A stretch of 64,000 nt of DNA, taken from IMG/VR virus record IMGVR_UViG_3300031873_001030; one strand, 5' to 3'. Positions 1,627-52,300 of this stretch are shown piece after piece; the stretch's first letter is position 1, and each line of letters begins with the position of its first letter. The DNA comes from a virus (lineage: Duplodnaviria > Heunggongvirae > Uroviricota > Caudoviricetes). The notes beneath the pieces are model-generated. The model was not told the DNA's origin. It searched no databases and saw only the letters and a program-made list of their open reading frames with translations. Made by a program: the position numbers and the translations under genes.

Positions 1627-2313
1627 GAAGCTTCATCCCGTTTCCATAGTAAATTTAAATACTATGGAAACTAATATTACATATGGTTAGATGGAAAAAA
1701 GATAGCCATATGATATTTGACAGCAACAATATCTATAATGATTTAGGTAATTGTTGGATTGACTTGAAAGCAAAGAAAAAAATGAGGTGATATGAAATGC
1801 CTGTTGGAAGACCTAAAGGTTATAGTCCTAAGAGAGATAATCAGAAGTGGAACTATTGCCCAAATTGTGGGAAGAAAGTAAATTGAACTAAAGAGGTAAT
1901 GAATTGTGAATTTGGAGAAGATTGTAAAGAAGATACAATTCCATAAAGAGATATTGATAAAGTTGAAGAATGATATGATTAAGAAGCATAGTCCTTTAGC
2001 TCCTGCGTATATAACTCATATACGTAGTTTGGAAGGTTTCTTGGCATATCTTGAAAAGGAGTTCAAAGCTATTGGAGAACAGAAAGAAGATTGATATGCT
2101 GAAAGGAAGTCTTTATAGATATTTCTTTTGTAAGGAAAAGAAAGAAAAAGAATATAGGTGTCCAAAATGCGATTGTATTTTGGAGATAGAGATAAAATGT
2201 GGACCCAAGTGATATTGATGAATAAATTACACGTAGATATATTTGGTATGGATATGGATTTTGTTAAATGTAATTCTATAAAAAATTCTCAGACAAGCGC
2301 TTCTGAAGACAAC

Positions 2314-2504
2314 TTAACATATGTTAAGAATTCAGCAGTACCTGCAGCAAGCAACTCATTAACATATGTTAAGTATCTCCATCGAATCATCCTTGGCAAA
2401 CGCCAGACCCAGGAACACAAGTCTTTAACATATGTTAATGTAATCATTGGCCGCATTGCCTCAAACAAGAAAGAAAATCCCAGTCGCCCATTAACATATG
2501 TTAA
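2314..2504. repeat. 4-repeat array of TTAACATATGTTAA with unique GC-rich spacers (31, 52, 52 bp)
   Basis: Exact 14-mers at 2314, 2359, 2425, 2491. Spacers ~50% GC versus ~33% background. Both-strand ORFs 2158..2559 and 2289..2564 are explained by translating the repeat (LTYVK/N). Confidence 0.85.
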
Positions 2505-2641
2505 TAAGTTGGTGCCAGCAATTGCTTGGCAACCAACAGCATACAAAGTGATATTATGAATCATATTCCTTTCATATGAAGCAGATATGTGGAAAATATT
2601 TGATACAATAATAGAAGGGAGAAAAAATGAGTTAAAAAGAG

Positions 2642-4010: not shown

Positions 4011-4895
4011 ATGGCACTATGGGATAGGGAAGAAAGAAAGCATACGGAAAATAAAGTATTGCCACTCAAGGATATAGTATTTGATGAGAACATATATCCA
4101 AGACAAAGTTCATGGTGGCAAACTTCGTATAAATATGCCGAAGAGATGAAAGCAGGCGCAAGGTTTCCTCCAATCACAGTAGGTTTTGTGAATGGAAGAT
4201 ACGTGCTTGTGGATGGGAAGCATAGGAATGACGCACTTCTGATGAATAAGGAGACACATACATCAGTAGTAGTTCTCTATGGTTACACTTTGGATGAACT
4301 CTATATTGAAGCTGTAAAACTCAATAGGGCTCACGGTGTAGGACTTACTTCTTTCGACAAGGTCAAGATAATCAAGAGACTTGAAGATATGAAATATTCA
4401 TTGGGAGACATAGCCACGATAGTCCAGATTCCTTTGGGAAGCATAGAGAAATTTGTAGCACAGAGGATTACGTTAAATCCATTAGGACAAGTCACAGTAT
4501 TGAAATCTCCTCTCAAGTTTATGGCAGGAGGAACTATAACGATGACTGACGAAGAGCAAGATACTCTAAGTGTGAGGAGTGAGATAAGTCTGGTAAATCA
4601 GATGACACAGATATTCTCAAATCCGAAGATGCTAAGGGTTGATATAACATTCGTTGATGCTATCGAGAAGCTTTACCAACTGATTCAAGATTTCCTCAAA
4701 GAACAGAAAATTTTGAATGGAGCTGGAAATACAATAGAAGAAGTTCCAAAAGAGAAAATATACAAGAAAAGAGGAAGACCTAAGAAAATCAAGACTGAAA
4801 GTGAGACTTCAGAACCAAAGAAAAAGGGAAGACCTAAAGGTTCTAAGAACAAGCTTAAAGAACTTGATGTCAGTAACGTCAAAGAACAAGCATAA
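4011..4895 (+). CDS. ParB/sulfiredoxin-fold (ParBc, DGQHR-like) domain protein with C-terminal AT-hook repeats
   Basis: Motif GRYVLVDGKHRNDAL matches the ParB/Srx N-terminal domain signature; C-terminus has KKRGRPKK and KKKGRPKGSK AT-hooks. Confidence 0.6.
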   Translation: MALWDREERKHTENKVLPLKDIVFDENIYPRQSSWWQTSYKYAEEMKAGARFPPITVGFVNGRYVLVDGKHRNDALLMNKETHTSVVVLYGYTLDELYIEAVKLNRAHGVGLTSFDKVKIIKRLEDMKYSLGDIATIVQIPLGSIEKFVAQRITLNPLGQVTVLKSPLKFMAGGTITMTDEEQDTLSVRSEISLVNQMTQIFSNPKMLRVDITFVDAIEKLYQLIQDFLKEQKILNGAGNTIEEVPKEKIYKKRGRPKKIKTESETSEPKKKGRPKGSKNKLKELDVSNVKEQA

Positions 4896-5798: not shown

Positions 5799-5822
5799 AA
5801 TGTATCGTTAACCAAAATTCCA

Positions 5823-7702: not shown

Positions 7703-7711
7703 AAAAGATTT

Positions 7712-12374: not shown

Positions 12375-12411
12375 AAAGATTGCATGCAGATAACTTCTTA
12401 ACATATGTTAA
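12361..12411. repeat. palindrome pair TTAACATATGTTAA-N23-TTAACATATGTTAA spanning a gene junction
   Basis: First copy holds the stop of 12018..12374; second copy holds the ATG (catATGtta) of 12405..12995. Confidence 0.9.
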
Positions 12412-16499: not shown

Positions 16500-16770
16500 T
16501 AAACCACAGATTACCAGACCATACCCGAACCTATAAGACCACATCACACCTGAGCGAAAAGTGTTAACCATACCACATCAGACTTTATCATGCCTTACCA
16601 GTCCTTAACATATCGTAACTTACCACAACGTAGCATAAATGACAATCCATATCTTACCACACACCAACATATCTTACCAAAACCCACCCTAACCCATCTA
16701 ACCCAATCATAAATATAATCCCTATCTTACCAAATCCCATCACAACGGACCCTACCAAATCAGACCCCGT
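16500..16770 (-). repeat. inverted partial copy of the GGTNN satellite (G-rich strand on minus)
   Basis: ACC-rich on + strand (accagaccatacccgaacc...); the reverse complement matches units of the 5090..7940 array, e.g. ggtaagatagggattatatttatg. Confidence 0.7.
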
Positions 16771-16868
16771 TAAATAATTATAAGTTTCCCTTTAAAGAAA
16801 CATGGAAGAGGACTTGTTCCTCTTCCCAACCAAATAATACCTTCTTGCCCTCTAAGTCAGTTACTTCT

Positions 16869-17742: not shown

Positions 17743-18933
17743 ATGACGTTGAAGAATCTTGTAACGCCATTGGAACTTAAGACTCTCTGGGATTCTGAAT
17801 ATTACAAATCAATATTGACAGCTACAGCTAGCAGCTGCCAATTTGGAAGGATAAGAGAACACCAACGTAATAATACATTCAAAGAAATCAGAGCCAATCT
17901 GAATGCTCTGATAGTTGGAGAATATGGAATTGGGAAATCCACAATGTTGGACATTAAGAATGTCCCAATAGTCAGGGCTAATACAGTTTCAGTTGCTGGA
18001 CTAGCTGGAACTACGACAAGAAGTGGGGAACACGTTATTGGAGCTGCATATAAAGCTAATAATAAATTACTAATTATAGATGACGTTGGTAGTGGTGAAA
18101 ATTCTTATATAGATAATTCTGTAAAACGATGCATGAATCTGCTATTGGAACCTCCGCATACTTTTTCACGAATGTTAGGATTTAAGATGAACATTCCTGT
18201 GAAAGAGAAGAAGGGTGGAGCTTGGGTGAAAGGAAGTGAGAATCAGTTTACATTGCGTTCTAAGTTCAGTTGCATCGTAGCTACAACATCAGTTGTAATT
18301 CGAAATACTGATGACAAAGCTTGGATGTCAAGATTCGTACCAGTAAAACTACATGGTAGTGTGGATTACATGTTTGAATTTTTATCTGGTTCTAATCCAT
18401 TTACAATTACTGGTTTGAATCGGAAAGTCAAGTTATTTGAATTTCCAGATTATCTGGAATTCTTGGAATTCTATGAAGAACATTTTCGTGGAAGTCTGTG
18501 GGAGAAAAGCATAATAGAAAAGGAAGATGAAGTCGGTTCTATAGCGAGAAATACTGGTGACTTGGTAAGATTGGCTGCTTTCAATTGCGCTGTCGATGAT
18601 AGAATAAATATAGAATTTGAAGATGCCAAGAAAGTTTTTGATAGGTTCTACAATCAGATATGGTTCAATATCCAAGTTGGACCACTGACTCATGAACAAT
18701 ATAGAGTTCTATTACTTCTCAATAAGAAGTTGACTGAAGATGAGATAGCAGAAACTATACAAAGGTCACAGCCTTACGTATCTAAGATGATAGAGAAATT
18801 TGAAAGTAAGGGAATACTTGTAGACAGAAAAGTTGCGAAAGAAGTTGAAAACTTTAAACAAACTTCATGGGAAAAACTCGAACCACAGCAGACTTTATCA
18901 GAATCTGTAAAGTTAGATGGTAGTCATGAGTGA
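17743..18933 (+). CDS. AAA+ ATPase with C-terminal winged-helix domain (Orc1/Cdc6-like or mobile-element replication initiator)
   Basis: Walker A VGEYGIGKST; Walker B LLIIDDVGSGE; C-terminal wH LTHEQYRVLLLLNKKLTEDEIAETIQRSQPYVSKMIEKFESKGIL. Confidence 0.55.
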   Translation: MTLKNLVTPLELKTLWDSEYYKSILTATASSCQFGRIREHQRNNTFKEIRANLNALIVGEYGIGKSTMLDIKNVPIVRANTVSVAGLAGTTTRSGEHVIGAAYKANNKLLIIDDVGSGENSYIDNSVKRCMNLLLEPPHTFSRMLGFKMNIPVKEKKGGAWVKGSENQFTLRSKFSCIVATTSVVIRNTDDKAWMSRFVPVKLHGSVDYMFEFLSGSNPFTITGLNRKVKLFEFPDYLEFLEFYEEHFRGSLWEKSIIEKEDEVGSIARNTGDLVRLAAFNCAVDDRINIEFEDAKKVFDRFYNQIWFNIQVGPLTHEQYRVLLLLNKKLTEDEIAETIQRSQPYVSKMIEKFESKGILVDRKVAKEVENFKQTSWEKLEPQQTLSESVKLDGSHE

Positions 18934-24415: not shown

Positions 24416-24479
24416 TTAACATATGTTAATCAGTGATGCAGCATAATGCAAAATTCCTTCAGTCTTTAACATATGTTAA
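24416..24479. repeat. palindrome pair TTAACATATGTTAA-N36-TTAACATATGTTAA
   Basis: Two exact 14-mers flanking 36-bp spacer tcagtgatgcagcataatgcaaaattccttcagtct, adjacent to tRNA cluster. Confidence 0.9.
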
Positions 24480-24601
24480 TGTCAAATTAGAAATGCAATA
24501 CGATTGTTAACAAGAAAGTTAACAAAGTCTCACCTGCCAGAATTGCACCAGCATCTACGAGGCTACAGCTCGTTGTTCTACTGTTGAACTAAGGCGAGTT
24601 G

Positions 24602-24674
24602 TGGGGATGCTGAGATTTGAACTCAGATTATTCGCTTCCAGAGCGAAGGTTCTAACAAGTTATACTACATCCCC
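24602..24674 (-). tRNA. tRNA-Pro (anticodon TGG)
   Basis: Manual fold: acceptor GGGGATG/CATCCCC; T-arm CTGAG-TTCAAAT-CTCAG; anticodon stem TTCGC/GCGAA; loop TCTGGAA (C at position 33 is atypical). Confidence 0.65.
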
Positions 24675-24677
24675 AAG

Positions 24678-24751
24678 GGAGAATAGAGGGATTTGAACCC
24701 TCTCTAACAAGTTCACAGCTTGACGTGCTCGCCTACTACACCATATTCTCC
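24678..24751 (-). tRNA. tRNA-His (anticodon GTG) with G-1
   Basis: Acceptor GAGAATA/TATTCTC plus an extra 5' G pairing the discriminator C (His hallmark); D-stem GTGT/GCAC; anticodon loop CTGTGAA; T-arm GAGGG-TTCAAAT-CCCTC. Confidence 0.75.
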
Positions 24752-25212
24752 ATTTTATTATGTTCTTCTCTATGGCAATTTGCACATAGAAGTTTGCATT
24801 TCTGCAATTCTTTTCGTATCACCTCGAGACTATTATGCCATATTCTGGATATTTCATATTTCTTTTCTCCGTTCATATGATGAAATTCAAGTGCTGCGAA
24901 ACATTTGTTATATCCACATTTTTGACATTTACCTCCAAATTCCATTTTCATAATTTTTGTTTTTTCTTGGTTTTTACGCTTTTGTGCTATATACCACAAA
25001 TGTCTCTGAGGGAGAGATGATTTTTGTTTATGTTGTTTTATATATTTTCTCATATATTCTCTATGATATTTTTTCCTTTTTTCTCTGTTTTCAGGGTTTG
25101 ACAACCAAATTTTCCATCGTTCTTTTTCTTGCTCACGGTGTGATTTTCTATATAATCTATTTATTTCACACAATCGTTCTTTGTTTTTTTCATAATATTT
25201 TTTACTGGTCAT
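24736..25212 (-). CDS. HNH endonuclease
   Basis: CQKCGY...LEFHHMNGEK...LCANCHREEH (HNH/zinc-finger nuclease signature); the 3' end of the ORF overlaps the 5' end of tRNA-His. Confidence 0.65.
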   Translation of the reverse strand: MTSKKYYEKNKERLCEINRLYRKSHREQEKERWKIWLSNPENREKRKKYHREYMRKYIKQHKQKSSLPQRHLWYIAQKRKNQEKTKIMKMEFGGKCQKCGYNKCFAALEFHHMNGEKKYEISRIWHNSLEVIRKELQKCKLLCANCHREEHNKMENMV

Positions 25213-25255
25213 ATAATGTAATTGTTTAATACCATTTATATTTGTTGTTGAACTA

Positions 25256-25330
25256 CGCTCTGGGCAAGACTCGAACTTGCAATTTCTCCGTTAACAGCGG
25301 AGCGCTTGTACCTGTTTAAGCTGCCAGAGC
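25256..25330 (-). tRNA. tRNA-Asn (anticodon GTT)
   Basis: Acceptor GCTCTGG/CCAGAGC; D-stem GCTT/AAGC; anticodon stem CTCCG/CGGAG; loop CTGTTAA; T-arm GCAAG-TTCGAGT-CTTGC. Confidence 0.75.
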
Positions 25331-25333
25331 AAG

Positions 25334-25437: not shown

Positions 25438-25469
25438 ATATTGATTGTAGTTCTTTTTAAAAACTATGG

Positions 25470-25500
25470 ACACAAGCGGGAATCGAACTCGCATCTCTTT
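25470..25500 (-). ncRNA. orphan tRNA 3'-half-like fragment (GCGAG-TTCGATT-CCCGC T-arm + 3' strand TTGTGTC-C)
   Basis: T-arm-like element with one A.C mismatch; no matching 5' acceptor strand found upstream. Confidence 0.25.
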
Positions 25501-25706
25501 CTTGCAAGGGAAGTATCCTACCATTAAACGATTGGCCCGTCATTGAAGAAAAAAGAACTAGCTCTATTGATTTGCCTTATGGGCGGGCTGTTGATTATAT
25601 GCTTCAATAGACATATTAGAAAATTTAGTCTTGATGATTGATTTGATTTTGTATTATGTGATATATAGAATGCAATATATATTTTAGAAGCATTATTTTC
25701 TAGATT

Positions 25707-25723
25707 TATCCCTCTAACGGGAT
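25707..25723. repeat. ATCCC-N6-GGGAT hairpin with GATTTAT/GGGATTTAT flanks
   Basis: Overlaps the stop codon of XPF (minus strand); same motif family as 7712..7752 and 43488..43503. Confidence 0.5.
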
Positions 25724-26358
25724 TTATATTTTTCAGTCAATATCTTCTTGATTCTAGTTGAAAGTACGTCTCCTATTCCCTTTGCTTTCTGCAAGTCTTC
25801 CTCACTGGCTAAAAGTACTTTTTCAACAGAACCGAGATTTTCCAACAGCCTTTTGGATATTGTCGAATTTACTCCAGGAATGGAGGAGACTATCTGCTCT
25901 TGTATCTTTGACATTTCTGTCGGCACCTTTTCAAATTTGTATGATACAGTTCTTTTGCTTTCAACTTGCTCTTTTTTCGCAAGATGATATATCATTCTGG
26001 CAGTGTCCATTTTGTCCTTAGTATTTACTATGGAAATGTTGAATCTGATGATTAGACTTGCCATAGCGGCTTTCACAATGTTCACATCTATGCGTTCATT
26101 TGGAAATCCTTCTATGATTATGATGACAATCTTAAAATTGTCCTTCATCCTAGTTGTCTGTTCAAATAACCTTCCATCAAATATTGACGCTACAAAATCT
26201 TGATATGTCTTCCTTTCAATCACTGTCCTATCCGAAACTATGAAGTCTCCAACTTCCAAGAAAGATTCATTCAAGTTGACGTTGGCAAAATTTCTCAGAA
26301 AGTATATCAGCTCTTTTTCCCTGGAATCTGCTGATATCGTGATTTTAAATTCTTCCAT
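25714..26358 (-). CDS. xpf: short XPF/Hef-type structure-specific nuclease (ERCC4 nuclease domain + HhH2)
   Basis: ERCC4 motif GDFIVSDRTVIERKTYQDFVASIFDGRLFEQ; C-terminal HhH2 IPGVNSTISKRLLENLGSVEKVLLASEEDLQKAKGIGDVLSTRI; ~214 aa as in the crenarchaeal-type PCNA-dependent short XPF. Confidence 0.7.
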   Translation of the reverse strand: MEEFKITISADSREKELIYFLRNFANVNLNESFLEVGDFIVSDRTVIERKTYQDFVASIFDGRLFEQTTRMKDNFKIVIIIIEGFPNERIDVNIVKAAMASLIIRFNISIVNTKDKMDTARMIYHLAKKEQVESKRTVSYKFEKVPTEMSKIQEQIVSSIPGVNSTISKRLLENLGSVEKVLLASEEDLQKAKGIGDVLSTRIKKILTEKYKSR

Positions 26359-30241: not shown

Positions 30242-31066
30242 ATGGCTAAACTTACTGCTACTGTAAATGATGTTGTCATGTTCAAGTCTCTTTTTGGTCT
30301 GTTGTGCAGGAATTCTGATATGCTAAAATTTAAAGTCGATAAGGAAGGTATAAGTTCTGTTACTATGCCTGCGGATATGGCGACTTTTCTTAGTGTTTTG
30401 ATAAAGCCAAATTTCTTTGAGGAATGGAATTTTGAAGGTTCGTTCATGTATTGCTATTTTGACCCGCAGCAATTTTCTCGGATGATGAAGAATCTTACCT
30501 CGAAGAAGATTGAGATGGTGCTTGATGAGAATTATATAAATTTCAGTCTTGAGAACGAGGGAAGAAAGAAACATATCTCATTGGTACAGATTACTGGAGA
30601 ATTGTCAGAGCTTCCTGGGAATTTGGGAACTGATTTTGATTTTTCATGGATTATTGAGATAGAGACTTTGAAAAGCATTGTGGATGATATTGTCAATGTC
30701 GATGACAATGCGGATTTGTCTTCCATCTATTTCACATGGGAAAAAGACAGTCTGAAAGTTGAAGCAAGGGAGAGTAAGGTCATGAAGTTTGAGACTATTA
30801 TTGGCCCACCTTTTGTGAAATGTGGTAGCGGGCATTCTTCTTTTAGGACCAATTATTTTTCAAAGATAGTCTGGGCTGGTCTTGGTAAGATTAGATTTTC
30901 AATCTTGAATACTGACGGTCCAGCTTTTATGGAGACTTGTGATGATAGCAAGTTCTCATTGAAATTTATTGTGGCGCCTTTTGTGGCAAGTAATCCTGAT
31001 ATGGATATCACGTCCGAGAATGACGGTAAAAGTTCACAAGATAGTGAGGTGGTAAGTGATGGGTAA
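30242..31066 (+). CDS. pcn: DNA polymerase sliding clamp PCNA
   Basis: Length 274 aa; N-terminal FKVDKEGISSVTMPADMATF aligns with archaeal PCNA FKVTEDGISMRAMDPSRVVL; C-terminal LKFIVAPFV matches the PCNA LTFLLAPRV region. Confidence 0.65.
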   Translation: MAKLTATVNDVVMFKSLFGLLCRNSDMLKFKVDKEGISSVTMPADMATFLSVLIKPNFFEEWNFEGSFMYCYFDPQQFSRMMKNLTSKKIEMVLDENYINFSLENEGRKKHISLVQITGELSELPGNLGTDFDFSWIIEIETLKSIVDDIVNVDDNADLSSIYFTWEKDSLKVEARESKVMKFETIIGPPFVKCGSGHSSFRTNYFSKIVWAGLGKIRFSILNTDGPAFMETCDDSKFSLKFIVAPFVASNPDMDITSENDGKSSQDSEVVSDG

Positions 31067-31520: not shown

Positions 31521-31556
31521 AGAATCAAGAATCAGAAAATTCTTTGTATACTTTCT

Positions 31557-32483
31557 TTGAAGAAAGTATTTGGAGGTTATAAAGAAATGATAATGACAAC
31601 AGGAAGTTGGATATTGGCAGGATTAGGTGCCTTCATATTCATAATGTTTCTTTCTGGAATAAGGATAGTAAGGCCTTTGGAAAGGGGTTTGGTTGAAAGG
31701 TTTGGTAAGTATCATAGGTTTGCCATGCCAGGTTTCAATTGGATAATCCCAGTATTTGACAGCATGTACAGAATCAACATCACCGAGACTATGGTGAATG
31801 CTGAACCTCAGCAGATTATTACTATGGATAAACTGAATGCCACAGTTGATGCGCAGGTTTATTTCAAGGTAAAAGATGATGAGACTTCTGTGAAGGCTTC
31901 TCAATATAACGTCTACAACTACAGGTACCAGATTGTAAATCTTGCGAGGACTACTCTGAGAAACATCATAGGTACGATGTCCCTTACTGATGCAAATAGC
32001 AAGAGGGATGTGATAAACAAGGATTTGATGGATACTCTCAGTGTCGAGACAAAGAATTGGGGTATACAAGTTGTGAGGACTGAATTGAAGGAGATAGACC
32101 CGCCAGAAGATGTACAAGCTACAATGAACAGGGTAGTGAAAGCGGAGAATGAAAAGATGGCTGCCATAGACTTTGCAACAGCTGCAGAGACTCAGGCAGA
32201 TGGTCTTAAGAGAGCGAAGATAAAGGAAGCGGAAGGTCTGAGGCAATTTGAGATATTGCGTGCAGAAGGTAATAAGCAGGCGACTATACTTGAAGCTGAC
32301 GGAAGAGCTCAGGCTATCAAGCTTGTGAATGAGGCTGCAGAAAAGTATTTCATTGGAAATGCCCAGAAATTGAAGACTCTCGAAGTCACTCAGAGTTCAT
32401 TGGAAAGCAATACAAAAATAATAGTTCCGAACGACCAGAAAATCATAAATGTGATAGGAAACTTAATCGGCGAAAAATTATAG
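31557..32483 (+). CDS. SPFH/band-7 (stomatin/prohibitin-like) membrane protein
   Basis: N-terminal TM then IRIVRPLERGLVERFGKYHRFAMPGFNWIIPVFD...VDAQVYFKV, the classic SPFH core; coiled-coil C-terminus. Confidence 0.75.
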   Translation: MKKVFGGYKEMIMTTGSWILAGLGAFIFIMFLSGIRIVRPLERGLVERFGKYHRFAMPGFNWIIPVFDSMYRINITETMVNAEPQQIITMDKLNATVDAQVYFKVKDDETSVKASQYNVYNYRYQIVNLARTTLRNIIGTMSLTDANSKRDVINKDLMDTLSVETKNWGIQVVRTELKEIDPPEDVQATMNRVVKAENEKMAAIDFATAAETQADGLKRAKIKEAEGLRQFEILRAEGNKQATILEADGRAQAIKLVNEAAEKYFIGNAQKLKTLEVTQSSLESNTKIIVPNDQKIINVIGNLIGEKL

Positions 32484-32564: not shown

Positions 32565-32807
32565 ATGACGAAAACAATAGTTGAGGAAAGTGTGATGCCG
32601 CATAAAAATGATTTCAGTTTTGACGAAGGAAAATCTTTTCTTGTAGAGGAATTTAAGATTAATGATAATCTTAGAAGAAGATATGTGAAGCTTATTGACC
32701 AGCATGGAAAATTCGAATTGTCTTTGTCACAGTTCAAATGGATTGTTGAAAAAGTCAATTGCATAGAATCTGAAGTAAATGTATATGAAAAACAATTGAG
32801 ATTGTGA
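32565..32807 (+). CDS. hypothetical protein (80 aa)
   Basis: GAGGAG SD upstream; part of a small-gene array. Confidence 0.35.
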   Translation: MTKTIVEESVMPHKNDFSFDEGKSFLVEEFKINDNLRRRYVKLIDQHGKFELSLSQFKWIVEKVNCIESEVNVYEKQLRL

Positions 32808-33193
32808 ATATGAAAAATATAAAGATAACGACAAAAATTTGTGACAAGCATTTTGCAATTTTGAGATATGAAAGTGATGATATGATTAGTGCGAAGAAGG
32901 TTTTCAATAAGCTGAATTGTAAGTTTAATTTCAAAGAGACTTGGTTCGTATCTGTTGATGGGATGATTTTTTCCATATCTTTCTGCCTTTATACTTGGTC
33001 GAAATACAAGTCGATGATTTATGCAAAAGGTATTTCAAAGAATTTCCGTGAAGGATGTTTGAAGGATAGGTGCGGTTGTCTTGTGTTGAAACCTGGCTGC
33101 AAGTTTAAAGTATTGTACAAATTCAATCAGGAGCGTTCGAATCAGGAACTTAAGAATAGCATTCAAGATATATTAACTAGGAAAGAATTATAA
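32804..33193 (+). CDS. hypothetical protein (129 aa)
   Basis: 4-nt overlap with upstream gene. Confidence 0.4.
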   Translation: MNMKNIKITTKICDKHFAILRYESDDMISAKKVFNKLNCKFNFKETWFVSVDGMIFSISFCLYTWSKYKSMIYAKGISKNFREGCLKDRCGCLVLKPGCKFKVLYKFNQERSNQELKNSIQDILTRKEL

Positions 33194-33195: not shown

Positions 33196-33501
33196 ATGGA
33201 GAACTTTCTTCAAAGAAAGTTCACAAAGAAATTGGAGGTAACTGGTATGAGTAAAGAAGCTGCAAGTAAGGAAGATGGTAGAGGAAGAAACGCAGTTTCT
33301 TCCCTAATGCATAAGCTGAAGATGGAAAAAAGATATAAAGGTAAGAAGATTGTTTCGATGAAGGAACGGTTCCTTAAGACTGCGCATCAGAGAGGGAAGA
33401 TGAAAAAAGGAATGACTAAATCCCAGATGAAGAAAGAAATCAAGCAAAGATTAAAAGATAAAAAACCAATATATCAATCAAGGCTTACCGATTATGTTTA
33501 A
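33196..33501 (+). CDS. Lys-rich small protein (101 aa)
   Basis: Highly basic; possible nucleic-acid binding. Confidence 0.4.
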   Translation: MENFLQRKFTKKLEVTGMSKEAASKEDGRGRNAVSSLMHKLKMEKRYKGKKIVSMKERFLKTAHQRGKMKKGMTKSQMKKEIKQRLKDKKPIYQSRLTDYV

Positions 33502-33829
33502 GAAGAAAAAAGTTTCGGCGAGACAGGAAGTAGAAGATATACGGAATAAAGTACATCAATCTGTACATTCTAAAGATAGGATGTCTTTAAAGGAAGAGCT
33601 TGATGAACTTCATGCACAGATACATGAGTCTGGAAAAGTTCGGATGCCTACTAGGGGGGAGATATATGGACATCCAACAAAGCCGATTGGAATCTGCTTG
33701 AAATGCAAAAAGATGTTTCCGACTGAGCAGCTTCAACGTTATTATATAAATCCAGAAGAGTGTTATTGGTTGTGTCCAAAGTGCGGTTTCAAGAAAAGAA
33801 TGAGAGAAAAGTTTTCATCGAGATTATAA
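33494..33829 (+). CDS. zinc-ribbon protein (111 aa)
   Basis: CLKCKK ... CPKCGF. Confidence 0.4.
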   Translation: MFKKKKVSARQEVEDIRNKVHQSVHSKDRMSLKEELDELHAQIHESGKVRMPTRGEIYGHPTKPIGICLKCKKMFPTEQLQRYYINPEECYWLCPKCGFKKRMREKFSSRL

Positions 33830-33878
33830 TTAAGTGATAAGAGGCAATAGAAAGTGAAAGAAGAAATCATTAATTTCT

Positions 33879-34622
33879 TTGTATACTTTCTTTGAAGAAA
33901 GTATTATGATAGAAGATGAAATTATAAGCGGGAGAATTTCTATTGGTCGGGTTGGTATTTATCTTAATGCTAAGACTAAAGGTGGTTACAATATAGGATT
34001 TAATTTTCTTAATAGTCCAGAGCTGAGGACTGCGGGCGTGTGCAATATCACGAAGGACCAGATGTTTATAATGTTTGCTGATTTTGACAATATAGGTTAT
34101 GAAAAACTTAAAGACCAGTTGGATTTCATAAATAGGAATCATGATGTGAGCAATTTTCTTGTTCTTACGACTGGAAAGAATCGATATCATGTGATAAGTT
34201 TTGAAAAATTCTGGAAACAGGAATTAGTTGACATATTGAAGAATACTTTCTGCGATTATACGTATAAAAGTTTTGTTCCGTTGAAAGTTGACAAGGGCTG
34301 GATACTTAGGGTGACTGAAAAGAGGGATTTGGATAATAATGTTGTGAAGGACAGGCCTGAATATGTAGAATCGTTTTCTTATTCTGAAGTCCCTAAGAGG
34401 AGATTGTCGCGTGCTCACGTAGAATTTTTTTCGAGAATGTATCCTGAATTCAGGAAATTTGCAGAGGAGAAGCTTGATAAAAATTATTGGGATGAGTTTA
34501 CTGTGATTCAGCTGCTGAAATATGGGACAAGCCATGAGAATCTTATTGCAAAATTTGACTTGAAGGATTTGATAGATTCCAAGAAGCTTGAAATAGTGTG
34601 GAAGGACAATATATTTGATTAG
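33879..34622 (+). CDS. putative primase-polymerase (AEP/prim-pol-like) domain protein
   Basis: AEP-like motifs: FIMFADFDNIGYE (DxD), TGKNRYHVISF (sxH), VDKGWILRV (D..hR); stop codon abuts hairpin element copy D. Confidence 0.4.
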   Translation: MYTFFEESIMIEDEIISGRISIGRVGIYLNAKTKGGYNIGFNFLNSPELRTAGVCNITKDQMFIMFADFDNIGYEKLKDQLDFINRNHDVSNFLVLTTGKNRYHVISFEKFWKQELVDILKNTFCDYTYKSFVPLKVDKGWILRVTEKRDLDNNVVKDRPEYVESFSYSEVPKRRLSRAHVEFFSRMYPEFRKFAEEKLDKNYWDEFTVIQLLKYGTSHENLIAKFDLKDLIDSKKLEIVWKDNIFD

Positions 34623-34695
34623 TGACAATGAACCTCAGAGTAGGAACCAACTGGAAAGTGGAATCAGCAAGTCATAACTGCGAGGTTCATTGTCA
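34623..34695 (+). ncRNA. structured hairpin element copy D
   Basis: Outer stem GACAATGAACCTC/GAGGTTCATTGTC (two compensatory pairs relative to copies A-C); followed by gcttttatt T-tract. Confidence 0.6.
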
Positions 34696-35417: not shown

Positions 35418-35500
35418 TTAGGGTCCGATGGGGTAAGTTAGGATATTGTGAGGTCGGATGTGGTATGTTTGGTGAGGTAAGGTATGGTCCGATATGGTTT
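35418..35500 (+). repeat. GGTNN satellite patch (includes TCCGATATGGT submotif) immediately upstream of gene 35503
   Basis: gggtccgatggggtaagttagg...ggtccgatatggttt; same family as 5090..7940. Confidence 0.65.
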
Positions 35501-35502: not shown

Positions 35503-35982
35503 GTGATTGATATGAAAATTGAAGTAAGGATGCACCATCTTAGCGAACTTAAGAGAAAGTTGCTTGATTCTGATATGAATCATACCAAGTATATTTTACT
35601 GGATGAGATGAGAGCGACGATAGATAAGTTGAAGGGTGACAGGAATCTCATGTTCAAGATTGTTGCTATGATGTCGAAAGTGACTACTGCTTCTCGGTTG
35701 ACTACTGAAGGGATGATAATGGCTTTGGAAAATATGGTTTTGTTTGATATAATGCAATATGATATTTTACAGGATGGTGATGTGACTGTTTTGAATCTGA
35801 ATGTTGATGATAATTATTTTGAGATTTTTAACAAGATTCCTCTGATTGGCAGGTTTATCTCAACTCTTTCTGGAGGAAGAAAAAGATATTTGGAAGAGGT
35901 GAGAAAAACTATAGAGGAGGATTATACAAAAGATTATACACTGAAAATAATCATGGATGATACAAAGGAGGTTCATGAATAA
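35503..35982 (+). CDS. hypothetical protein (159 aa)
   Basis: Intact ORF; stop overlaps start of the GIY-YIG paralogue (ATGA). Confidence 0.4.
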   Translation: MIDMKIEVRMHHLSELKRKLLDSDMNHTKYILLDEMRATIDKLKGDRNLMFKIVAMMSKVTTASRLTTEGMIMALENMVLFDIMQYDILQDGDVTVLNLNVDDNYFEIFNKIPLIGRFISTLSGGRKRYLEEVRKTIEEDYTKDYTLKIIMDDTKEVHE

Positions 35983-41671: not shown

Positions 41672-41698
41672 ACTTTGATTACCAATTATTATGACAGC

Positions 41699-41745
41699 GT
41701 ATGGTTAGGTCTGGTTGGATGTGATAAGATAAGGTTTGGTAAGAT
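41699..41745 (+). repeat. GGTNN satellite patch upstream of gene 41764
   Basis: gtatggttaggtctggttggatgtgataagataaggtttggtaag. Confidence 0.55.
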
Positions 41746-42043
41746 AATAAAGAGGTAATGTAAATGGGAATACTTGATATGTTTACGCAATCTGACAGAC
41801 TGAAAAATGTTTTGTTGGGAATTATTAATATGTTGCTTCTTTTGGGAATTTTTCTTCTTGGCCATAATTCTGCGATATGGACAAATGAACAAATACAAAC
41901 ATATTGTTCCATAGATTGGTGCAATGCTTATCGCATGAATACAGGAATTTTCAATACTTCTATCATAACTGGTGTGAATGATACTTTTAATATTTCAGAT
42001 TTAGGTCTGAATCCGAAATTGAATTTTACATTGGTGAATGTAA

Positions 42044-44138: not shown

Positions 44139-47100
44139 TTGCCCAATTTGGAGGGTTTTGTAATGGCAAATAGTATTTTTGGTCAGCCTCAGCCAAATCC
44201 ATTTTCACCAGGCACGACATTGCCGTCATCAAATGTAAGTGTGACGCCAAGTATGCCCATTGGTGGATTGACTGTAGGATTAGGAGGAAGTGGAAATGTT
44301 TATTATGGAGGAGCGCCTGCTGGAGGAGTTGGTCAGACTACAACAACAACTGGAGGTCCTGCGATTTATATTCCTCCACAGGAGACTGCAAAAGCAGCAG
44401 AAAAAACAATAACTCCTGCTTTGATTCCTGAAATAAAACCGCCAACTTTAAAAGTTGGTGTCGGCGGATTGGTAGAAGGTTTGGGAAAATCTGGTAATGT
44501 ATATGAAGGTGGTGTGCTTGTTGGAGGTACTACTCCATGGGGTCCTGTAGTTAAGGAAGGTGGTGTCAGTTATGTCCCAACTGGAAGGACAGCTGAAACT
44601 GGAGAGACAATTTATTCTGGAACTCAGATAAGTTCTGCAACACCTATTGGAACTTTTGTGCCTGCAAAGAGAATTGAAATAACTCCACTGATGCCAGAGA
44701 TTAGTGTACAACCAGCTACAGCTGGTGCTATAGGTCTTTCATTTCCTGCAGGTGTTTTGTCTGTAAAATCTGGTCCAGTTGATGTGAGCAAACTTTCTCC
44801 AGATGTGCAGACTGCGTTGGGAAATCTTCAAGGAAAGGTGCAGGCTGAATATCCAGGATTCAAGCTTGCAAGTTGGACTCGTGAAGGTGATGAGCTGAAA
44901 GGTGTTTTGGAACCTGTGAAGTATGTCTCACTTGGAACTGATGTTACGAAAGCGACTGCTGCCATAAAGGATTTGGGATTGAAAGAAGGTGATTATAAAT
45001 TATATACTGGAATTGGTGGGGATTATCAGCTTGTGACTGATAAGGTGTCAAGCCAGAAATACGTGAGTGGTCTTCTTTCCAGTTATTCAGTTATTCCTAT
45101 AACTGGGTATGGACAGTATAGAGGGTCTGATGAGAGGATTGCATTGAAGTTTCTTGATAAGGAAGGTTATATCAAAGATGGTGTGATAAGCAAAGATGTT
45201 CAAGTGATAGGGGATATAGGAGTAGGAGGAACTGGTGCGATGATAGTTTTAAAGGGAAGTACAAAGAGTTCTGAAGATTTGTCAAAGACTTATTTTTCTT
45301 CCTTGACTGAAGTGCAGAAGGAAGATACTGCGATGGCAAGAGGAGAGTTGCAGATTGCTCAGGAAAAGGAACTTTTGAGACAACCTGGTATGAGTGTTGA
45401 AAAGGGAGCTGCTTGGTGGAATTTGAATGTTGGTCCTTATATGCTTTCTCCAAAGGACCCTCTTGGTCTGAGGAGTGCTTACATAGGAGTTGAAGGTTTG
45501 GTAAAAGGAACTCCTGTCAGTGTCATACAAAAGGACATAGAAGCTAGCAGGCTTTCTGCAGAACAGGAATTTCTTCAGAGAAAATATATGGGAGAGTCTT
45601 GGACTAAATCATTATGGGAAGCTCCTGCAACGCAGCCTTTGAAAGTTGCTGCTACTTGGTATGGCGGTGGTCTTTTGTTGGGAGGTGCTGCTGGAGTTCT
45701 TAAAACTGCTGAAGTAGGTGCTGGTATAGTATCAAAAGCTCCATGGCTTGCAACTACAGGAAGAGTTATTTCAACTGCTGGAAAAGTTGCGACAAGTGTT
45801 CCAGGACAAGTTGTAATTGGTTCAGGATTGTATGGTTTTACTGAAAGAGGAAATATAATGGCACTTGCAAAAGGAGGTGTTCCAAGAGACATTGTTCCTG
45901 GAATGATTTTTGACGCATCACAATTTGGATTTGCATATGGCGGTGCAGCTGCAGGTTTTCCAGTTGGTTATTCTAGAGGTGCTGGATTGGGTTATGCTTT
46001 CAAGCCTGGTGCATTGCCTCCATCTGAAACATTCGTGGCAGAAATCAGAGGGACTGGAGTATCTGGAATTCCAGGTGAATTGCAAGGATTGAAACTTGGG
46101 ACAAGGGTTGCTGGAGAAGTTCCAAAGGGTTTTGTTCCAAAAGGATTTAGTGAAGGTGTTCCTTATAGGGCGTTCTTGCAGGAGGGTGTGACAGTTACAA
46201 GAGCTGGAGAAGTTGTACCTTCTGGGACTTTGATGCCAACTATTGCAGAAATGGAACCTGCAAAACCTTTGATGCAGAGGATTGCCACTGCAATGACAAA
46301 GCCAAGCGAATTGATTCCTAAGATGCTTCCTGGAGGACCTACTGTTGAAGCTCCTTTTCTTGAATCAATCAGATATGGTGAAGAAAAGATAGCGAAAGGA
46401 GGAACTAAGGATATTTATGCTGCAGGTTATCAGCCAGGAACTACAATATGGTCAAGATTGAAGATGCCTGTTGAAGGAGCGCAGTATGGGATTGCTGAAG
46501 GTTTTAAGACTGTTACAGCTGAGAGTCCTCTTGCTTCGTTGACAGAAAAATACACTACAAGGATGGCATTGAGAGCTACTGGCGCTCCTATTGAAGCGGG
46601 AGATGTTGTTCCAGTGAAAATAATGGCAAAGACAGATTTTATTGTAAATGATGAAGGGATAGCTGCGATGTTGAAATCTGGAAAGAATCTTGCAGATATT
46701 GAAAAATTGAAAGGTGCTGATATAATACAGCGTGATATTGAATTTGCAGATAAGCCTGCTGTAAGGTACACTAGATTTATTGATAAGGAAACTGGAAAAT
46801 CTTTGGTTGTGTTGAAGCAGACTGCAGCTCCTACAATAGAGGAAGTTGTTGCTTTGGCAGAGGAAGGAAAGACTTTGATAAAACCTGAATATGTTGGAGG
46901 AAAGGTTGCAGGCTATAGTATAAGAGGTACTGAAATAGTTGGAGAGGGGAAAGAATTTGCAGGAGGAGTGCGTTATAAAAAGGGTGTTGAAGTAGTTGGT
47001 AAGGAACAAGTGACAGGAATAGCTCTTGATGATAAGACATTTAACGCATTGATGGATAAATATGGAAACAAGATATTGAGGGTTTCATCTCCGACAACTG

Positions 47101-48161
47101 CAAGAGATATAGCAGCTCTTGAGGCAAGTGCTGAAGGCGGTGTCACAAGAGGGACAAGCGAGCTTTCTGTCATCAGATACGTCTCAAGGGGACAATTTGA
47201 AGATTATCTGAAATCAAGAACTGGAGTAAGTAGTGTGAAGGGTGGTGAATATCCTCCTACTGAAGCTGGAACTTTTGGAACTGTTTCAATTGAAAGGCCT
47301 GAAGTTCCTAGACTTCCTAAGGTACCAGAAGAAAAAATAGTTCCACCTGAAGCTGGAGTTTCAAAAGGAGGTCTTATGTCTGAAGGCGAGAGAGTGATGT
47401 CAATTGCTCTTTCAGAAGAAGTTGGAAGACCAGCAGTCGGATTGGAAGAACGTCCTTTGAGATTCACTGAAAAGTATTTTGGGATGCAAACTCCATCCTT
47501 TGGAGTGACATCTGTTGAAGGTGCAGGGATAATAAGTTCTGACATAGCCATTGCTACAAAGTCTGCTGTTGGAATGCGTGAACAATTAGTTGCAGCTCCA
47601 GAGATTAGTGTTAGAACTATGTTGAAACCATCTGCAATTATGACTAGTGTAAATATTGAGGATGTGTTGCTTAAGATTTCTGAAAGTATTTTAGGCAAGT
47701 TGCAGCCAAGGATAAGTACTGATATCACTGATGTAGGAATGAGGATTGAACCGATAACTTCTCCTATTGTTACAACTAAGGTTACAACTGCTGTTGATAT
47801 AACACCTATACCTATGAATTTGATAGCTCCTATTACAACTTTTAAAGGACCAATTGTGACTGTCAGACCTCCAATAATACCTCCTGGTGGTGGGGGCGGT
47901 GGTGGAGAAGGTAAAAAACCTGAAAGAGAATATTTTGGATATTTCGGTCGTAAAAAAGCAGGAAAGAGAATTTTAAGTTCTGATTTGTTTTCTGTTGCTG
48001 TGTCTCAGGCTGCGTATGGAAAAGCCACTACTCCAAAGTTTAGTAGGAAAGAAGTTTCTGAACTTGAGAGCAGAGGTTTGATAAGAGTTCCTACAGCTGA
48101 GATATCTGGAATCCCAAGTTCTGGAGAATTATTGAAAAGATTGTTAGGAGGTAGAAAATGA
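44139..48161 (+). CDS. large Gly/Val/Thr/Ala-rich protein of unknown function (1340 aa)
   Basis: Long intact ORF with GGAGGG SD; no signal peptide or TM; GSGNVY(Y/E)GG repeats near N-terminus; C-terminal GGGGGGEGKK. Confidence 0.6.
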   Translation: MPNLEGFVMANSIFGQPQPNPFSPGTTLPSSNVSVTPSMPIGGLTVGLGGSGNVYYGGAPAGGVGQTTTTTGGPAIYIPPQETAKAAEKTITPALIPEIKPPTLKVGVGGLVEGLGKSGNVYEGGVLVGGTTPWGPVVKEGGVSYVPTGRTAETGETIYSGTQISSATPIGTFVPAKRIEITPLMPEISVQPATAGAIGLSFPAGVLSVKSGPVDVSKLSPDVQTALGNLQGKVQAEYPGFKLASWTREGDELKGVLEPVKYVSLGTDVTKATAAIKDLGLKEGDYKLYTGIGGDYQLVTDKVSSQKYVSGLLSSYSVIPITGYGQYRGSDERIALKFLDKEGYIKDGVISKDVQVIGDIGVGGTGAMIVLKGSTKSSEDLSKTYFSSLTEVQKEDTAMARGELQIAQEKELLRQPGMSVEKGAAWWNLNVGPYMLSPKDPLGLRSAYIGVEGLVKGTPVSVIQKDIEASRLSAEQEFLQRKYMGESWTKSLWEAPATQPLKVAATWYGGGLLLGGAAGVLKTAEVGAGIVSKAPWLATTGRVISTAGKVATSVPGQVVIGSGLYGFTERGNIMALAKGGVPRDIVPGMIFDASQFGFAYGGAAAGFPVGYSRGAGLGYAFKPGALPPSETFVAEIRGTGVSGIPGELQGLKLGTRVAGEVPKGFVPKGFSEGVPYRAFLQEGVTVTRAGEVVPSGTLMPTIAEMEPAKPLMQRIATAMTKPSELIPKMLPGGPTVEAPFLESIRYGEEKIAKGGTKDIYAAGYQPGTTIWSRLKMPVEGAQYGIAEGFKTVTAESPLASLTEKYTTRMALRATGAPIEAGDVVPVKIMAKTDFIVNDEGIAAMLKSGKNLADIEKLKGADIIQRDIEFADKPAVRYTRFIDKETGKSLVVLKQTAAPTIEEVVALAEEGKTLIKPEYVGGKVAGYSIRGTEIVGEGKEFAGGVRYKKGVEVVGKEQVTGIALDDKTFNALMDKYGNKILRVSSPTTARDIAALEASAEGGVTRGTSELSVIRYVSRGQFEDYLKSRTGVSSVKGGEYPPTEAGTFGTVSIERPEVPRLPKVPEEKIVPPEAGVSKGGLMSEGERVMSIALSEEVGRPAVGLEERPLRFTEKYFGMQTPSFGVTSVEGAGIISSDIAIATKSAVGMREQLVAAPEISVRTMLKPSAIMTSVNIEDVLLKISESILGKLQPRISTDITDVGMRIEPITSPIVTTKVTTAVDITPIPMNLIAPITTFKGPIVTVRPPIIPPGGGGGGGEGKKPEREYFGYFGRKKAGKRILSSDLFSVAVSQAAYGKATTPKFSRKEVSELESRGLIRVPTAEISGIPSSGELLKRLLGGRK

Positions 48162-49388: not shown

Positions 49389-52300
49389 ATGCATTGGAAA
49401 CATTTACTTACTCATAAGTCTCTTTTTCTGGAGGGGATTCGAATCAGTATAAGATTGTCAAAGGCAACTGTAAAGATTACAAGCTTGATATTCGCATTGG
49501 CTCTGATTGGAACTTTTGGCTATCTTTTTATCTCCAATGTCAGCAACAAAGTGAGTGGAGATTCTTATAATGACATAAATATGAGTGATATAGTCAATAA
49601 TACTATAGTGACAGCATCTAGTTATTCGAATTATGAATATGAGGTGACTAAAAATGTATACAAGACTTATTTCCAAGACAATATCAATTCAGGTGAAGCT
49701 GTAAGGTTTGAGAAGGATGGATATTATTTCATATATGATTTGAGTGGTGGAAAGATTCAGTGGGCAGAACAAGATGGAAACCCTACGAAGACAAAGTCCA
49801 TAGGAGCAATATTATCTTCTCCGATAAGTCTTGCTGGTGATAAAGTTTATTACAATGATGCTTTTGCATATACAAATGTGAGTTATCTTATCTTGAATGA
49901 CATGCTCAAAGAGAATTTCATATTGTCATCATCGTTGCCGATAGATGACACATACTTGTATTTGGAATATACTGGTGAGATAAAGCATTCGGATAGTCTG
50001 ATGATTTATGCAAATGATAAGAATCAGACTGAAAAGAATTTTGTAACTCAAGGTAAGATAGAATTCAAGGATGTAAATGGAACTACGATATTTTTCTTAC
50101 CAGCACCTACAGTAACTGATTCGAATGGAAAGTCGGAATATGGTTTTTATGATATAAAAATTTCCAGTGGAAAGATTGCATTCAATCTTAGAGTGAACAG
50201 CACTTTCTTGAAAAATGCCGCTTACCCAGTGTATATAGACCCAACTATTAGAACTTTCAATGATACATTATCATCAAAAAACTTGACATTTATATGGAAT
50301 CAGAATCAGACACTTTATATATCAATACCAAAAAATGCTATAGTTACAAATGCTTACTTGAATTTGAGTGGATTCCCGGCACAGAATAATGTAAATTTCT
50401 TTGACCCCTTAGACAATGGAAATTATATTAGTTCAACCAATGCTATAGTAAGTGGCGGGCAAATAACATTAAATCGTCAAAACAATACAGGGGAAAGTTT
50501 TACTTCACCTCCCTGCAGTGAAATACAATATATAGGCGGTACCGTACCAGGTACTTATGCAACTGCACAATCCTTTAGAGCATCGGGTGTGTATCTTTCA
50601 TATATTAAAGTCAAGTTCTTCAATCAAGTCACCGCAACATTATCAATAAGGTCGAGTTTAGCTGGAGCCAATCTTGTTTCTACAAGTGTTGCAAGCGGAG
50701 ATGAGAGATATTATGAATGGTATATCACAAACCCACCAGCGCTCACTGTTGGTAATACTTACTACATAGTTCTTACATGGAGTTCTGACGGAAGCAATTA
50801 TGGAGGCTTGAGACAGGCTTGCTACAATTATTTGTATCCGAACGGAACTTATTATGCTTACTTGTTAAGTTCCTGGAACACTGAACCGAATGGGGCTTAC
50901 TATGACCATGCTTTTGAAACAAAATACTGGGAGTATGATACAAGCAATTATGTTAATTCAGTTGCAATAGACACCACATCATATTATTTGAATGCAACCT
51001 TAACAAAATCAGATAACATACCAGCAGGAACATCAATAACTTATTATTTAAGTTCAAATGGTGGCGCGTCTTGGGAACAAGTCACCTCAGGCATAAATCA
51101 TACATTCTCTAATATCGGGCAAGATATCAGATGGAGAGGAGTATTGACAACAAATTCTGATAGGTCATCAACACCAACACTTTATAACATGACTGTGAAT
51201 GCATCTCAAGGGTATTGGCCAATGAATCCTTATCTTGATATTTCTGGGGATGGAGACGTGGAATGGAATTATACAGGAACATTTAATCAATCAAACAATA
51301 GGACAGCAAACTTATCCTCTGAAATAAACACATATTTGTCGACTTGTACACCAACAAGTGGGAATTGCACAATGCCATTAGTATTCCATTCAGATACAGC
51401 AGGAATAATTCAGGTTTCAGATATCAACATAACATATAATGTGCCTTTTATATCGGTTTGGAATACTTCAAAGGCAGGAACTAGCAACTCTACACAGATT
51501 GAATTGCCTTTATACAATGGAGGCACTTATGCATTTACAGTGGACTGGGGTGATGGAACAACAGATTACATCACTTCATATCTGAATGATAACCACACTT
51601 ATGCGACAGCAGGGGTTTACGTTGTGAACATAGCTGGGACTATAAATGGATTCAGGTTCAACAATGGTGGCGACAGATTAAAGATTATCAACATCACACA
51701 ATGGGGAGACTTGAATGTAGGAAATTCTGGTAATTATTTTCACGGTTGTGCTAATTTGAATAGCAATGCCACTGATAACTTGAATTTGGCAGGAACTACG
51801 GATTTGTCTAATATGTTTTATTCAGCTACTTCCTTCAATGGAAGTATTTCAGGCTGGGATACAAGTGGTGTCACTTCCATGTATACTATGTTCTATGGCG
51901 CTTCTAATTTTAATTCGAATATTTCAAGCTGGAATACAGGAAATGTAATCAATATGGAATATATGTTTTATACCGCTTCTTCCTTTAATCAGAATATTTC
52001 AAACTGGAATACAGGAAAAGTCACTAGTATGTTAAGTATGTTTCATGGTGCCACTTCTTTCAATCAGAACATAAGCAATTGGGATGTCAGTAAAGTCACT
52101 ACTATGTCTGATATGTTTCATAGTGCTACTTCCTTCAATGGAAATATTTCAGGCTGGAATGTAGTCAATGTCACTACTATGTATGATATGTTCCATAGTG
52201 CCACTTCTTTCAATCAGAGTATGAGTAGTTGGAATACAGGAAATGTTGCTACTATGTTTTCCATGTTTTATGGTGCTACTGCTTTCAATGGCAATATTTC

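Follow-up and report, generated by a model that had tools for sequence, protein, structure and literature searches.

The gene and its upstream repeat

The stretch of DNA considered here, referred to as the window (64,000 nucleotides; IMG/VR record IMGVR_UViG_3300031873_001030), is part of the 91,950-bp contig k141_1406800 (ENA ERZ27247974), in which nearly all genes lie on one strand. On the + strand of the window, an open reading frame extends from 33879 to 34622 and closes with a TAG stop codon at 34620-34622. [quoted passage not shown] All of these are present, with the stop ending at 34622 and the hairpin stem beginning at 34623/34624. The frame had been read from the TTG at 33879. The true start is most likely the ATG at 33906, because the database gene call and all homologues begin there and because the TTG falls within a 41-nt repeat upstream of the gene. 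The AEP gene is thus assigned to 33906..34622 (+ strand), where it encodes a 238-aa protein that is most likely a stand-alone AEP-superfamily catalytic domain, and residues are numbered from ATG 33906.

The frame is a genuine conserved gene and not a chance occurrence, given its 16 close homologues and 587 related clusters. A word-indexed search yielded 8 close homologues with 42-74% identity, which became 16 after extension. A profile search of 1.84 billion representative proteins then gave the 587 clusters at E<=1e-3, with 243 at E<=1e-10, and the majority of the members in these clusters are 180-210 aa long. The protein contains just two Cys and carries neither a zinc finger nor a PriCT or helicase domain, and no further Pfam domain is present.

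The 41-nt repeat (33865..33905, + strand) contains the palindrome ACTTTCTTTGAAGAAAGT at 33885-33902, ending 3 nt before the ATG of the AEP gene. A second copy of the repeat at 31530-31570 is 93% identical and lies ~20 nt before the start of the Band-7 gene, and a third copy of the palindrome (33203-33220) is found at the 5' end of the ORF that begins at 33196. The three exact copies of the palindrome, against 0.06 expected, fall within 2.4 kb, and none occurs elsewhere in the window. The repeat looks like a shared operator or promoter element. In the related locus L004, an unrelated inverted repeat is located just upstream of the AEP start.

Conserved residues and predicted fold

Conservation was counted in a 150-sequence alignment of diverse family members with a mean column identity of 15%. 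The three stretches that had been taken as AEP motifs are ADFD (aa 58-61, nt 34077-34088), GKNRYHVISF (aa 90-99), and DKGWILRV (aa 129-136), all contained within 79 residues. The first two are upheld by the alignment. Motif I, D59-F60-D61 (GAT TTT GAC, 34080..34088, + strand), closes the stretch FIMFADFD, where D59 is found in 147/150 members and D61 in 150/150; both are predicted metal ligands. The motif II histidine, H95 (CAT, 34188..34190, + strand), lies in RYHVIS and is His in 131/150 members and Gln in 5/150, a variation known at this position in AEP families (PMC5862659).

The third stretch did not hold up as proposed. Its acidic residue, D129 (34290-34292), is kept in just 21/150 members, whereas D117 (GAT, 34254..34256, + strand) of the sequence FCDY, positioned after the second helix, is Asp in 146/150. 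D117, not D129, is the real third acidic residue, and motif III is therefore reassigned to C116-D117. The remainder of the stretch belongs to a motif IV-like element, LR-x3-K (34308..34322, + strand), that is predicted to bind nucleotide. It comprises R135 (AGG, 34308-34310) within WILRV and K139 (AAG, 34320-34322), which are conserved in 149/150 and 147/150 members, respectively. D59, D61, H95, D117, R135, and K139 are nearly invariant across the 150 members. Further conserved positions are G44 (147/150), K101 (131/150), W132 (122/150), L134 (139/150), S168 (141/150), H171 (134/150), D196 (145/150), and Y206 (148/150).

Taken in sequence, the elements of the family pattern, hhhDhD ... (Y)H ... 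(C)D ... LR-x3-K, correspond to AEP motifs I-IV as these were defined by Kazlauskas et al. 2018 (PMC5862659). The features of AEP motifs I-III are found: a hydrophobic strand that ends in DxD/E for motif I, small-x-His (with Gln or Tyr in place of His in some families) for motif II, and hydrophobic-Asp for motif III. In the PrimPol-PV1 supergroup and PriS, motif IV is marked by an invariant Arg (or Lys) with a hydrophobic residue directly after it, on the strand that comes next after motif III, and this feature is likewise present. This 'Rh' motif is conserved in both groups and is essential in PolpTN2 (Kazlauskas et al., PMC5862659).

With an 8-sequence alignment, AlphaFold gave a model with a pLDDT of 69.5, and with the 150-sequence alignment the pLDDT was 91.7 and the pTM 0.83. 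The core of the predicted structure consists of a strand (54-61), a helix (65-79), two strands (83-90 and 93-102), a helix (104-112), and a further strand (133-135). D59 and D61 close the first strand, H95 stands at the beginning of the third, and R135 lies in the strand following the second helix, with K139 just after it. This beta-alpha-beta-beta-alpha-beta setting of the motifs agrees with published definitions of AEPs (PMC5862659).

The predicted model is structurally similar to solved AEPs. In a comparison with 48,164 chains, AEPs of about ten different families accounted for 12 of the 23 top fold matches and gave the longest alignments. Among these AEPs, the highest fold-match score was that of HP0184 (7.7), followed by human PriS (6.6), yeast PriS (6.4), ASFV C962R (5.9), human PrimPol and CAPP (5.6 each), the cyanophage S-2L PrimPol (5.3), PriS of Tetrahymena and of Sulfolobus (5.1 each), and RepB', Pyrococcus PriS, and the AEP of monkeypox E5 (5.0 each). 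HP0184 represents an AEP subfamily near RepB' and All3500 (PMC8065100). A Foldseek search of the BFVD viral models returned no match at E<=1e-3.

Searches for a known family

Sequence searches did not place the protein in a known family. Pfam, PHROGs, and NCBIfam gave no match for the AEP protein or ten distant relatives, and no significant family among the 150 relatives. The only replication-related hits among the latter were below threshold: RepB_primase in 3 (best E 0.0067), DNA_primase_S in 1, and the PriS model TIGR00335 in 1. PDB sequences, searched with the single protein and with profiles of 8 and of 150 sequences, gave no relevant match, and an hhalign comparison of the family profile with the N-terminal 280 aa of pRN1 ORF904 gave no match (probability 0.2%). 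By none of the methods used was there a significant sequence-profile match to any known AEP family. The profile check proposed at the outset gave no support from Prim-Pol, DNA_primase_S, RepB_primase, or NCBIfam models; the assignment to the AEPs is supported by fold and conserved residues and not by profile matches.

Relatives were also sparse in the collections of viruses, plasmids, and genomes. A tblastn search of GenBank phages and PLSDB plasmids found no relative, nor did a scan of IMG/VR for the AEP protein. Among 185,579 species genomes in GTDB, the family is present on one 8.8-kb contig only (L003), which is binned to a Clostridiaceae MAG; this binning is probably wrong.

Gene neighborhood and synteny

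Immediately upstream of the AEP gene is a gene for a zinc-ribbon protein (CxxC...CxxC; 33494..33829, + strand). In L001, L003, L004, L006, and L007, its homologue adjoins the AEP gene on the upstream side or is separated from it by one small ORF. Around the distant, ~190-aa members of the family, no zinc-ribbon gene was found at this upstream position. Two small genes (32804..33193 and 33196..33501, + strand) are conserved ahead of the zinc-ribbon and AEP genes in every close relative, with BLASTP synteny in L001, L004, L006, and L007. Neither has a family match in Pfam or PHROGs.

Two further genes of the window encode likely components of a replication apparatus. The first, at 17743..18933 (+ strand), encodes an MCM-like AAA+ ATPase with Walker A, Walker B, and SRF motifs and a C-terminal winged helix. 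Its best PDB matches are the cores of MCM8/4/5/2/7 (E 2e-4 and weaker), and its C-terminus matches MarR-type winged helices in both PDB and Pfam. The protein is a probable helicase or initiator partner, and its homologues precede the AEP gene by ~2 kb in L003 and by 1.3 kb in the distant L011, where the AEP is 25% identical. The second gene (30242..31066, + strand) encodes a divergent PCNA-like sliding clamp that is syntenic with the AEP block. The clamp is missed by Pfam and matches Sulfolobus PCNA weakly (E 0.003-0.008), its homologue in L001 carries a weak PCNA_N match, and identity between relatives is 25-32%.

The close relatives, in which the AEP is 42-51% identical, comprise L001 (Logan, 32-kb contig), L004 (NCBI GCA_964352345.1, 106-kb contig), L006, L007, and the GTDB contig L003. 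Their gene order is collinear with the window. The order begins with the PCNA-like clamp, Band-7 (in L001), a ParB-like gene, and the homologues of 32804..33193 and 33196..33501, proceeds through the zinc-ribbon gene, the AEP gene, and a homologue of 35503..35982, and ends with homologues of the genes at 41764 and 43464 and of a 1340-aa giant protein. L001, L004, L006, and L007 share the synteny of the zinc-ribbon, AEP, and PCNA genes. In the distant L010 (61-kb contig), the AEP gene is surrounded by dozens of small ORFans that run in one direction, with Band-7 and an Hjc-like gene also present.

The element that carries the gene

The AEP block had been interpreted as one of several integrated mobile-element modules interleaved with chromosomal-looking genes. 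This interpretation is not borne out. No integrase or recombinase was detected by Pfam or PHROGs among ~50 ORFs of the window, a set consisting mostly of ORFs of at least 100 aa, and no integrase is among the precomputed Pfam matches of the contig flanks. GC content is 0.35-0.38 across 32-36 kb, the same as in the flanks, and the AEP gene has a GC of 0.351, a GC3 of 0.377, and a codon-usage correlation of 0.79, values that are typical of the window. Every close relative has the block in collinear order, and no housekeeping genes, ribosomal or other, occur in the ~90 kb of contig inspected. The PCNA that had seemed chromosomal is a very divergent protein (E ~3e-3 against Sulfolobus PCNAs), and the putative HNH gene in the tRNA cluster (24736..25212, minus strand) has no Pfam match at E<0.01. 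What survives of the earlier interpretation is its mobile-element character, which applies to the contig as a whole and not to an inserted block. The AEP gene belongs to the conserved backbone of a ~92-kb element that resembles a virus or plasmid, and not to a chromosomal island.

The window also holds five clustered tRNA genes, two GIY-YIG genes, a PD-(D/E)XK nuclease, an XPF/ERCC4 nuclease found by Pfam (25714..26358), glycosyl- and methyltransferases, ParB, and a gene for a 3752-aa DUF285 protein. The 8.8 kb upstream of the window encode a phage-type MoxR ATPase, a VWA protein, and an ATP-dependent DNA ligase, and the 7 kb downstream encode proteins of 1736 aa and 1460 aa. In its entirety, the contig resembles an extrachromosomal element, or a virus, whose replication genes are of archaeal type. 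Judged only by the types of genes, PCNA, XPF, the MCM-like ATPase, the AEP, and the Hjc of a distant relative point to a putative archaeal host, and GGTGA-type ribosome-binding sites and overlapping genes point in the same direction. The low GC and one-strand layout prompted a comparison with Borgs and mini-Borgs, which gave no grounds for claiming a link, as PCNA, primase, and ParB are not mentioned in the mini-Borg paper.

The hairpin repeat

Hairpin copy D (34623..34695, + strand; 34624-34694 when listed with the other copies) directly follows the stop codon of the AEP gene, with arms at 34623-34641 and 34677-34695, a basal stem of 13-14 bp, and a degenerate interior. Three other copies, A (4945-5015), B (6152-6223), and C (6950-7020), are in or next to a 3-kb gene-free, G/T-rich region that follows the ParB-like gene, and all four have the same (+) orientation. 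The hairpin is not a product of chance, as the arm pattern occurs 10 times in the window with 0.53 expected. The 13-bp basal stem has no broken pair in the four copies, two of its pairs are kept through double changes, and the internal-loop sequences CAGAG and CUGCG are invariant. Copies A-C are long and nearly perfect (z -5.3 to -8.7), and copy D consists of the basal stem only (z = -3.4). A possible fifth copy, degenerate and on the minus strand, is seen at ~13486-13550.

No Rfam family matches the hairpin, and it is missing from all related loci, where the stop codon of the AEP gene is usually overlapped by the following gene. In L006, neither satellite nor hairpins are present in the gene-free region that lies upstream of ParB. 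A search of JGI metagenomes with the hairpin pattern gave six matches, all by chance and on unrelated, mostly high-GC contigs, and IMG/VR gave none. Because it is missing from related loci, JGI metagenomes, and IMG/VR alike, the hairpin is an element-specific palindromic repeat, and the gene does not have it at its stop codon as a conserved feature. The link that had been drawn between gene and hairpin is not supported. If copy D acts at all, it most likely does so as a 3'-end or terminator structure; a scan for consensus terminators found none at its site. The repeat may serve as a 3'-end structure, be a miniature palindromic mobile repeat, or act as a recognition site for a protein or the primase.

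The last of these roles bears on an alternative for the AEP protein itself. With an AEP fold, it could act mainly as an origin-specific initiator, like RepE/RepS of theta plasmids or RepB' on ssi hairpins, that recognizes a specific DNA structure, possibly the hairpins of its own element, and starts synthesis only there. The RepB'/HP0184 group is among the best fold neighbors, RepB_primase is the most frequent of the weak Pfam hints, and the conserved C-terminal part specific to the family (S168, H171, D196, Y206) could bind DNA. The four hairpins with their invariant internal loop and co-varying stem, one adjoining the AEP gene and three in the gene-free region, would suit such a protein as well. 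However, every relative that carries the gene lacks the hairpins, as do the metagenome and viral collections, so they are not the general substrate of the family. All four also run with transcription, which fits a role in RNA or as a terminator equally well. We consider an origin-specific initiator unlikely.

Proposed function and relation to known systems

The product of the gene is most likely a small DNA primase, archaeal/eukaryotic in type, that belongs to a family without a curated database model. In archaeal plasmids and viruses, replication is usually started by AEP primases. Taken as a whole, the locus is probably best explained by an AEP-type primase of this uncurated family that serves the replication of its ~92-kb carrier element or virus. 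The most likely function is that of the replicative primase of the element, possibly a primase-polymerase. In the proposed mechanism, D59, D61, and D117 would hold two catalytic metal ions, and H95, R135, and K139 would position the incoming nucleotide. The enzyme would make primers de novo for replication of the element and may also extend them. It probably works with the zinc-ribbon protein (33494-33829), the MCM-like AAA+/winged-helix protein (17743-18933), and the PCNA-like clamp (30242-31066). The existence and conservation of the gene, its residue pattern, the similarity in fold, the synteny, and the lack of island signatures are established, and catalysis, the partners, and the part played in replication are inferred. 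Inspection of ~90 kb revealed no gene for a DNA polymerase, and primers would be extended by another polymerase, probably that of the host.

A role in repair or damage tolerance, in the manner of PrimPol or the LigD Pol domain and in company with ligase, XPF nuclease, and PCNA, would make the protein something other than a replicative primase. The contig does encode an ATP-dependent DNA ligase (L022 7383-8207), an XPF/ERCC4 nuclease, and a PCNA-like clamp, and both LigD Pol and human PrimPol are among the fold matches. Yet no Ku-like gene was seen, and in relatives the ligase and XPF genes are unlinked to the AEP gene, whereas linkage with the MCM-like ATPase is seen in two independent relatives, one of them with an AEP of 25% identity. 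A repair enzyme is accordingly an improbable assignment.

About as doubtful is a more far-reaching proposal, in which the window would represent an undescribed lineage of ~90-106-kb elements or viruses whose AEP primes at hairpin signals. The archaeal-type replication set of this lineage would consist of a minimal AEP, a trans-acting zinc ribbon, a mini-MCM, a divergent PCNA, XPF, and ligase. Priming would take place on structured single-stranded DNA, as by RepB' at ssiA/ssiB, with the hairpins of the element as priming or origin signals.

That the protein is no AEP, and is instead an unrelated RRM/ferredoxin-like protein with convergent acidic motifs (e.g., another nucleotidyltransferase or a HUH-type Rep), is highly improbable given the preponderance of AEPs among the top fold matches, conserved residues that stand in AEP order with pRN1-like spacing, the absence of Pol-beta nucleotidyltransferase or palm-domain matches, and a YHVIS sequence whose single His leaves no HUH motif of the rolling-circle Reps (His-hydrophobic-His plus a catalytic Tyr motif).

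The AEP protein represents a new family within a well-known superfamily and not a new kind of system. It is an incremental addition to a well-studied group and introduces no new principle. The family comprises at least 587 clusters at 50% identity, with proteins of 180-240 residues that escape Pfam, NCBIfam, and PHROGs. With a model derived from the 150-sequence alignment, annotators could spot the replication module in many virus-like contigs that are otherwise uninterpretable. New AEP families keep redefining the minimal size of such an enzyme, and one as compact as this is suited to testing which parts of an AEP priming needs.

The closest known relatives are PriS and the PrimPol-PV1 supergroup, which includes RepB' of RSF1010, PolpTN2, and the All3500-like and HP0184-like proteins (PMC5862659, PMC8065100). 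The fold and the four-motif logic are common to all of them. The AEP protein differs from the PrimPol-PV1 supergroup in having no significant sequence similarity to any member family; in lacking a PriCT, PriL-like, or helicase domain; and in possessing an N-terminal sheet of four strands that is its own, along with a C-terminal part in which S168, H171, D196, and Y206 are invariant. A spacing of 6 is described for R231 and N237 of PolpTN2, in contrast to a spacing of 4 between R135 and K139. Compared with PriS, the protein is ~100-150 residues shorter and has no embedded zinc-binding domain, its sequence falls below the threshold of every PriS model, and no PriL partner was detected.

Other comparisons are with systems that share the setting of the gene. 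ORF904 of pRN1, a PrimPol proper (Pfam Prim-Pol PF09250), is likewise a primase-polymerase carried by a plasmid or virus, the type of protein to which the preliminary description had likened the frame, and its inter-motif spacing is similar. ORF904 has a fused helicase domain, whereas the AEP protein stands alone and has no Pfam Prim-Pol match. The MCM and primase modules of archaeal plasmids and viruses also encode an MCM-like AAA+ protein and an AEP on one element. The ATPase described here, however, is short (336-396 aa), with an MCM-like core and a winged helix, and is not a full MCM, and its gene is located 15 kb from the AEP gene in the window.

Repeated Palindromes and the NNGGT Satellite

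The predicted small archaeo-eukaryotic primase (AEP) gene shares a repeat with two other genes. The repeat is 31-41 nt long and contains the internal palindrome ACTTTCTTTGAAGAAAGT. One copy immediately precedes the Band-7 gene (31530-31570), another lies in inverted orientation at the 5' end of ORF 33196 (33203-33233), and a third immediately precedes the AEP gene (33865-33905). Three exact copies of the palindrome are present versus 0.06 expected, and the repeat is probably an operator or promoter common to these genes.

A second palindrome, TTAACATATGTTAA, is perfect over 14 bp and occurs in 15 copies, versus 0.03 expected by chance, at window positions 700-2504, 5432-5836, 12361-12411, and 24416-24479. 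Copies are frequently paired with a spacing of 38-66 bp; eight of them lie upstream of the ParB-like gene (4011..4895) and three downstream of it. Together they may form a parS-like centromere or a set of operators. An apparent ORF at 2158..2559, carrying LTYV[KN] repeats, is probably merely the TTAACATATGTTAA array translated.

Hairpins A-C, copies of an element-specific palindromic repeat that follow the ParB-like gene, sit within a 3-kb satellite (~5020-7960) that is gene-free, G/T-rich, and built from the degenerate pentamer NNGGT. The gene-free region of the relative L006 yielded no counterpart of this satellite. Further short NNGGT patches are intergenic, at 35419-35493, 41696-41759, and 16507-16772, the last reading as ACC on the plus strand. 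Because this patch, at 16.5 kb, is reverse-complemented at the point where genes turn to the minus strand, the satellite tracks the direction of transcription.

The MCM-like ATPase and the tRNA Cluster

The protein that the preliminary description had named an AAA+ initiator with a winged helix, encoded at 17743-18933 (+) and with counterparts in a relative (L003 2186-3346) and a distant relative (L011 5506-6516), is MCM-like and not Orc1/Cdc6-like. Three motifs are present: Walker A (GxGKS/T), Walker B (LLIID-E), and "SRF". Its top PDB matches are the cores of MCM8/4/5/2/7, and its C-terminus is a MarR-type winged helix.

The gene at 24736-25212 (-), previously called HNH, lies in the Tyr-Pro-His-Asn tRNA cluster (24527-25331); a Pfam scan gave no match for it at E<0.01. 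Its homologue in the relative L004 is 41% identical. Adjoining the cluster is a fifth tRNA-like gene, 25468-25538 (-), detected by Rfam (37.5 bits, gathering score 29) and absent from ARAGORN output.

Contig Flanks and Large Proteins

No housekeeping genes were seen in the contig flanks, upstream (L022 2893-8207) or downstream (L012 11697-20450) of the window. In the upstream flank are genes for a MoxR AAA+ protein of phage type (PF20030), a VWA protein, and an ATP-dependent DNA ligase of 274 aa; the downstream flank encodes proteins of 1736 aa and 1460 aa with no recorded Pfam match. Within the window, 49389-60647 (+) encodes a 3752-aa protein in which DUF285 (PF03382) is matched over four stretches (E 2.8e-138); numerous internal DNA repeats also occur there. 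A 1340-aa protein (44139-48161, +) has no family match, and homologues of 1150-1360 aa occupy the same position in relatives; its gene has a higher GC (0.42) and a low GC3 (0.24).
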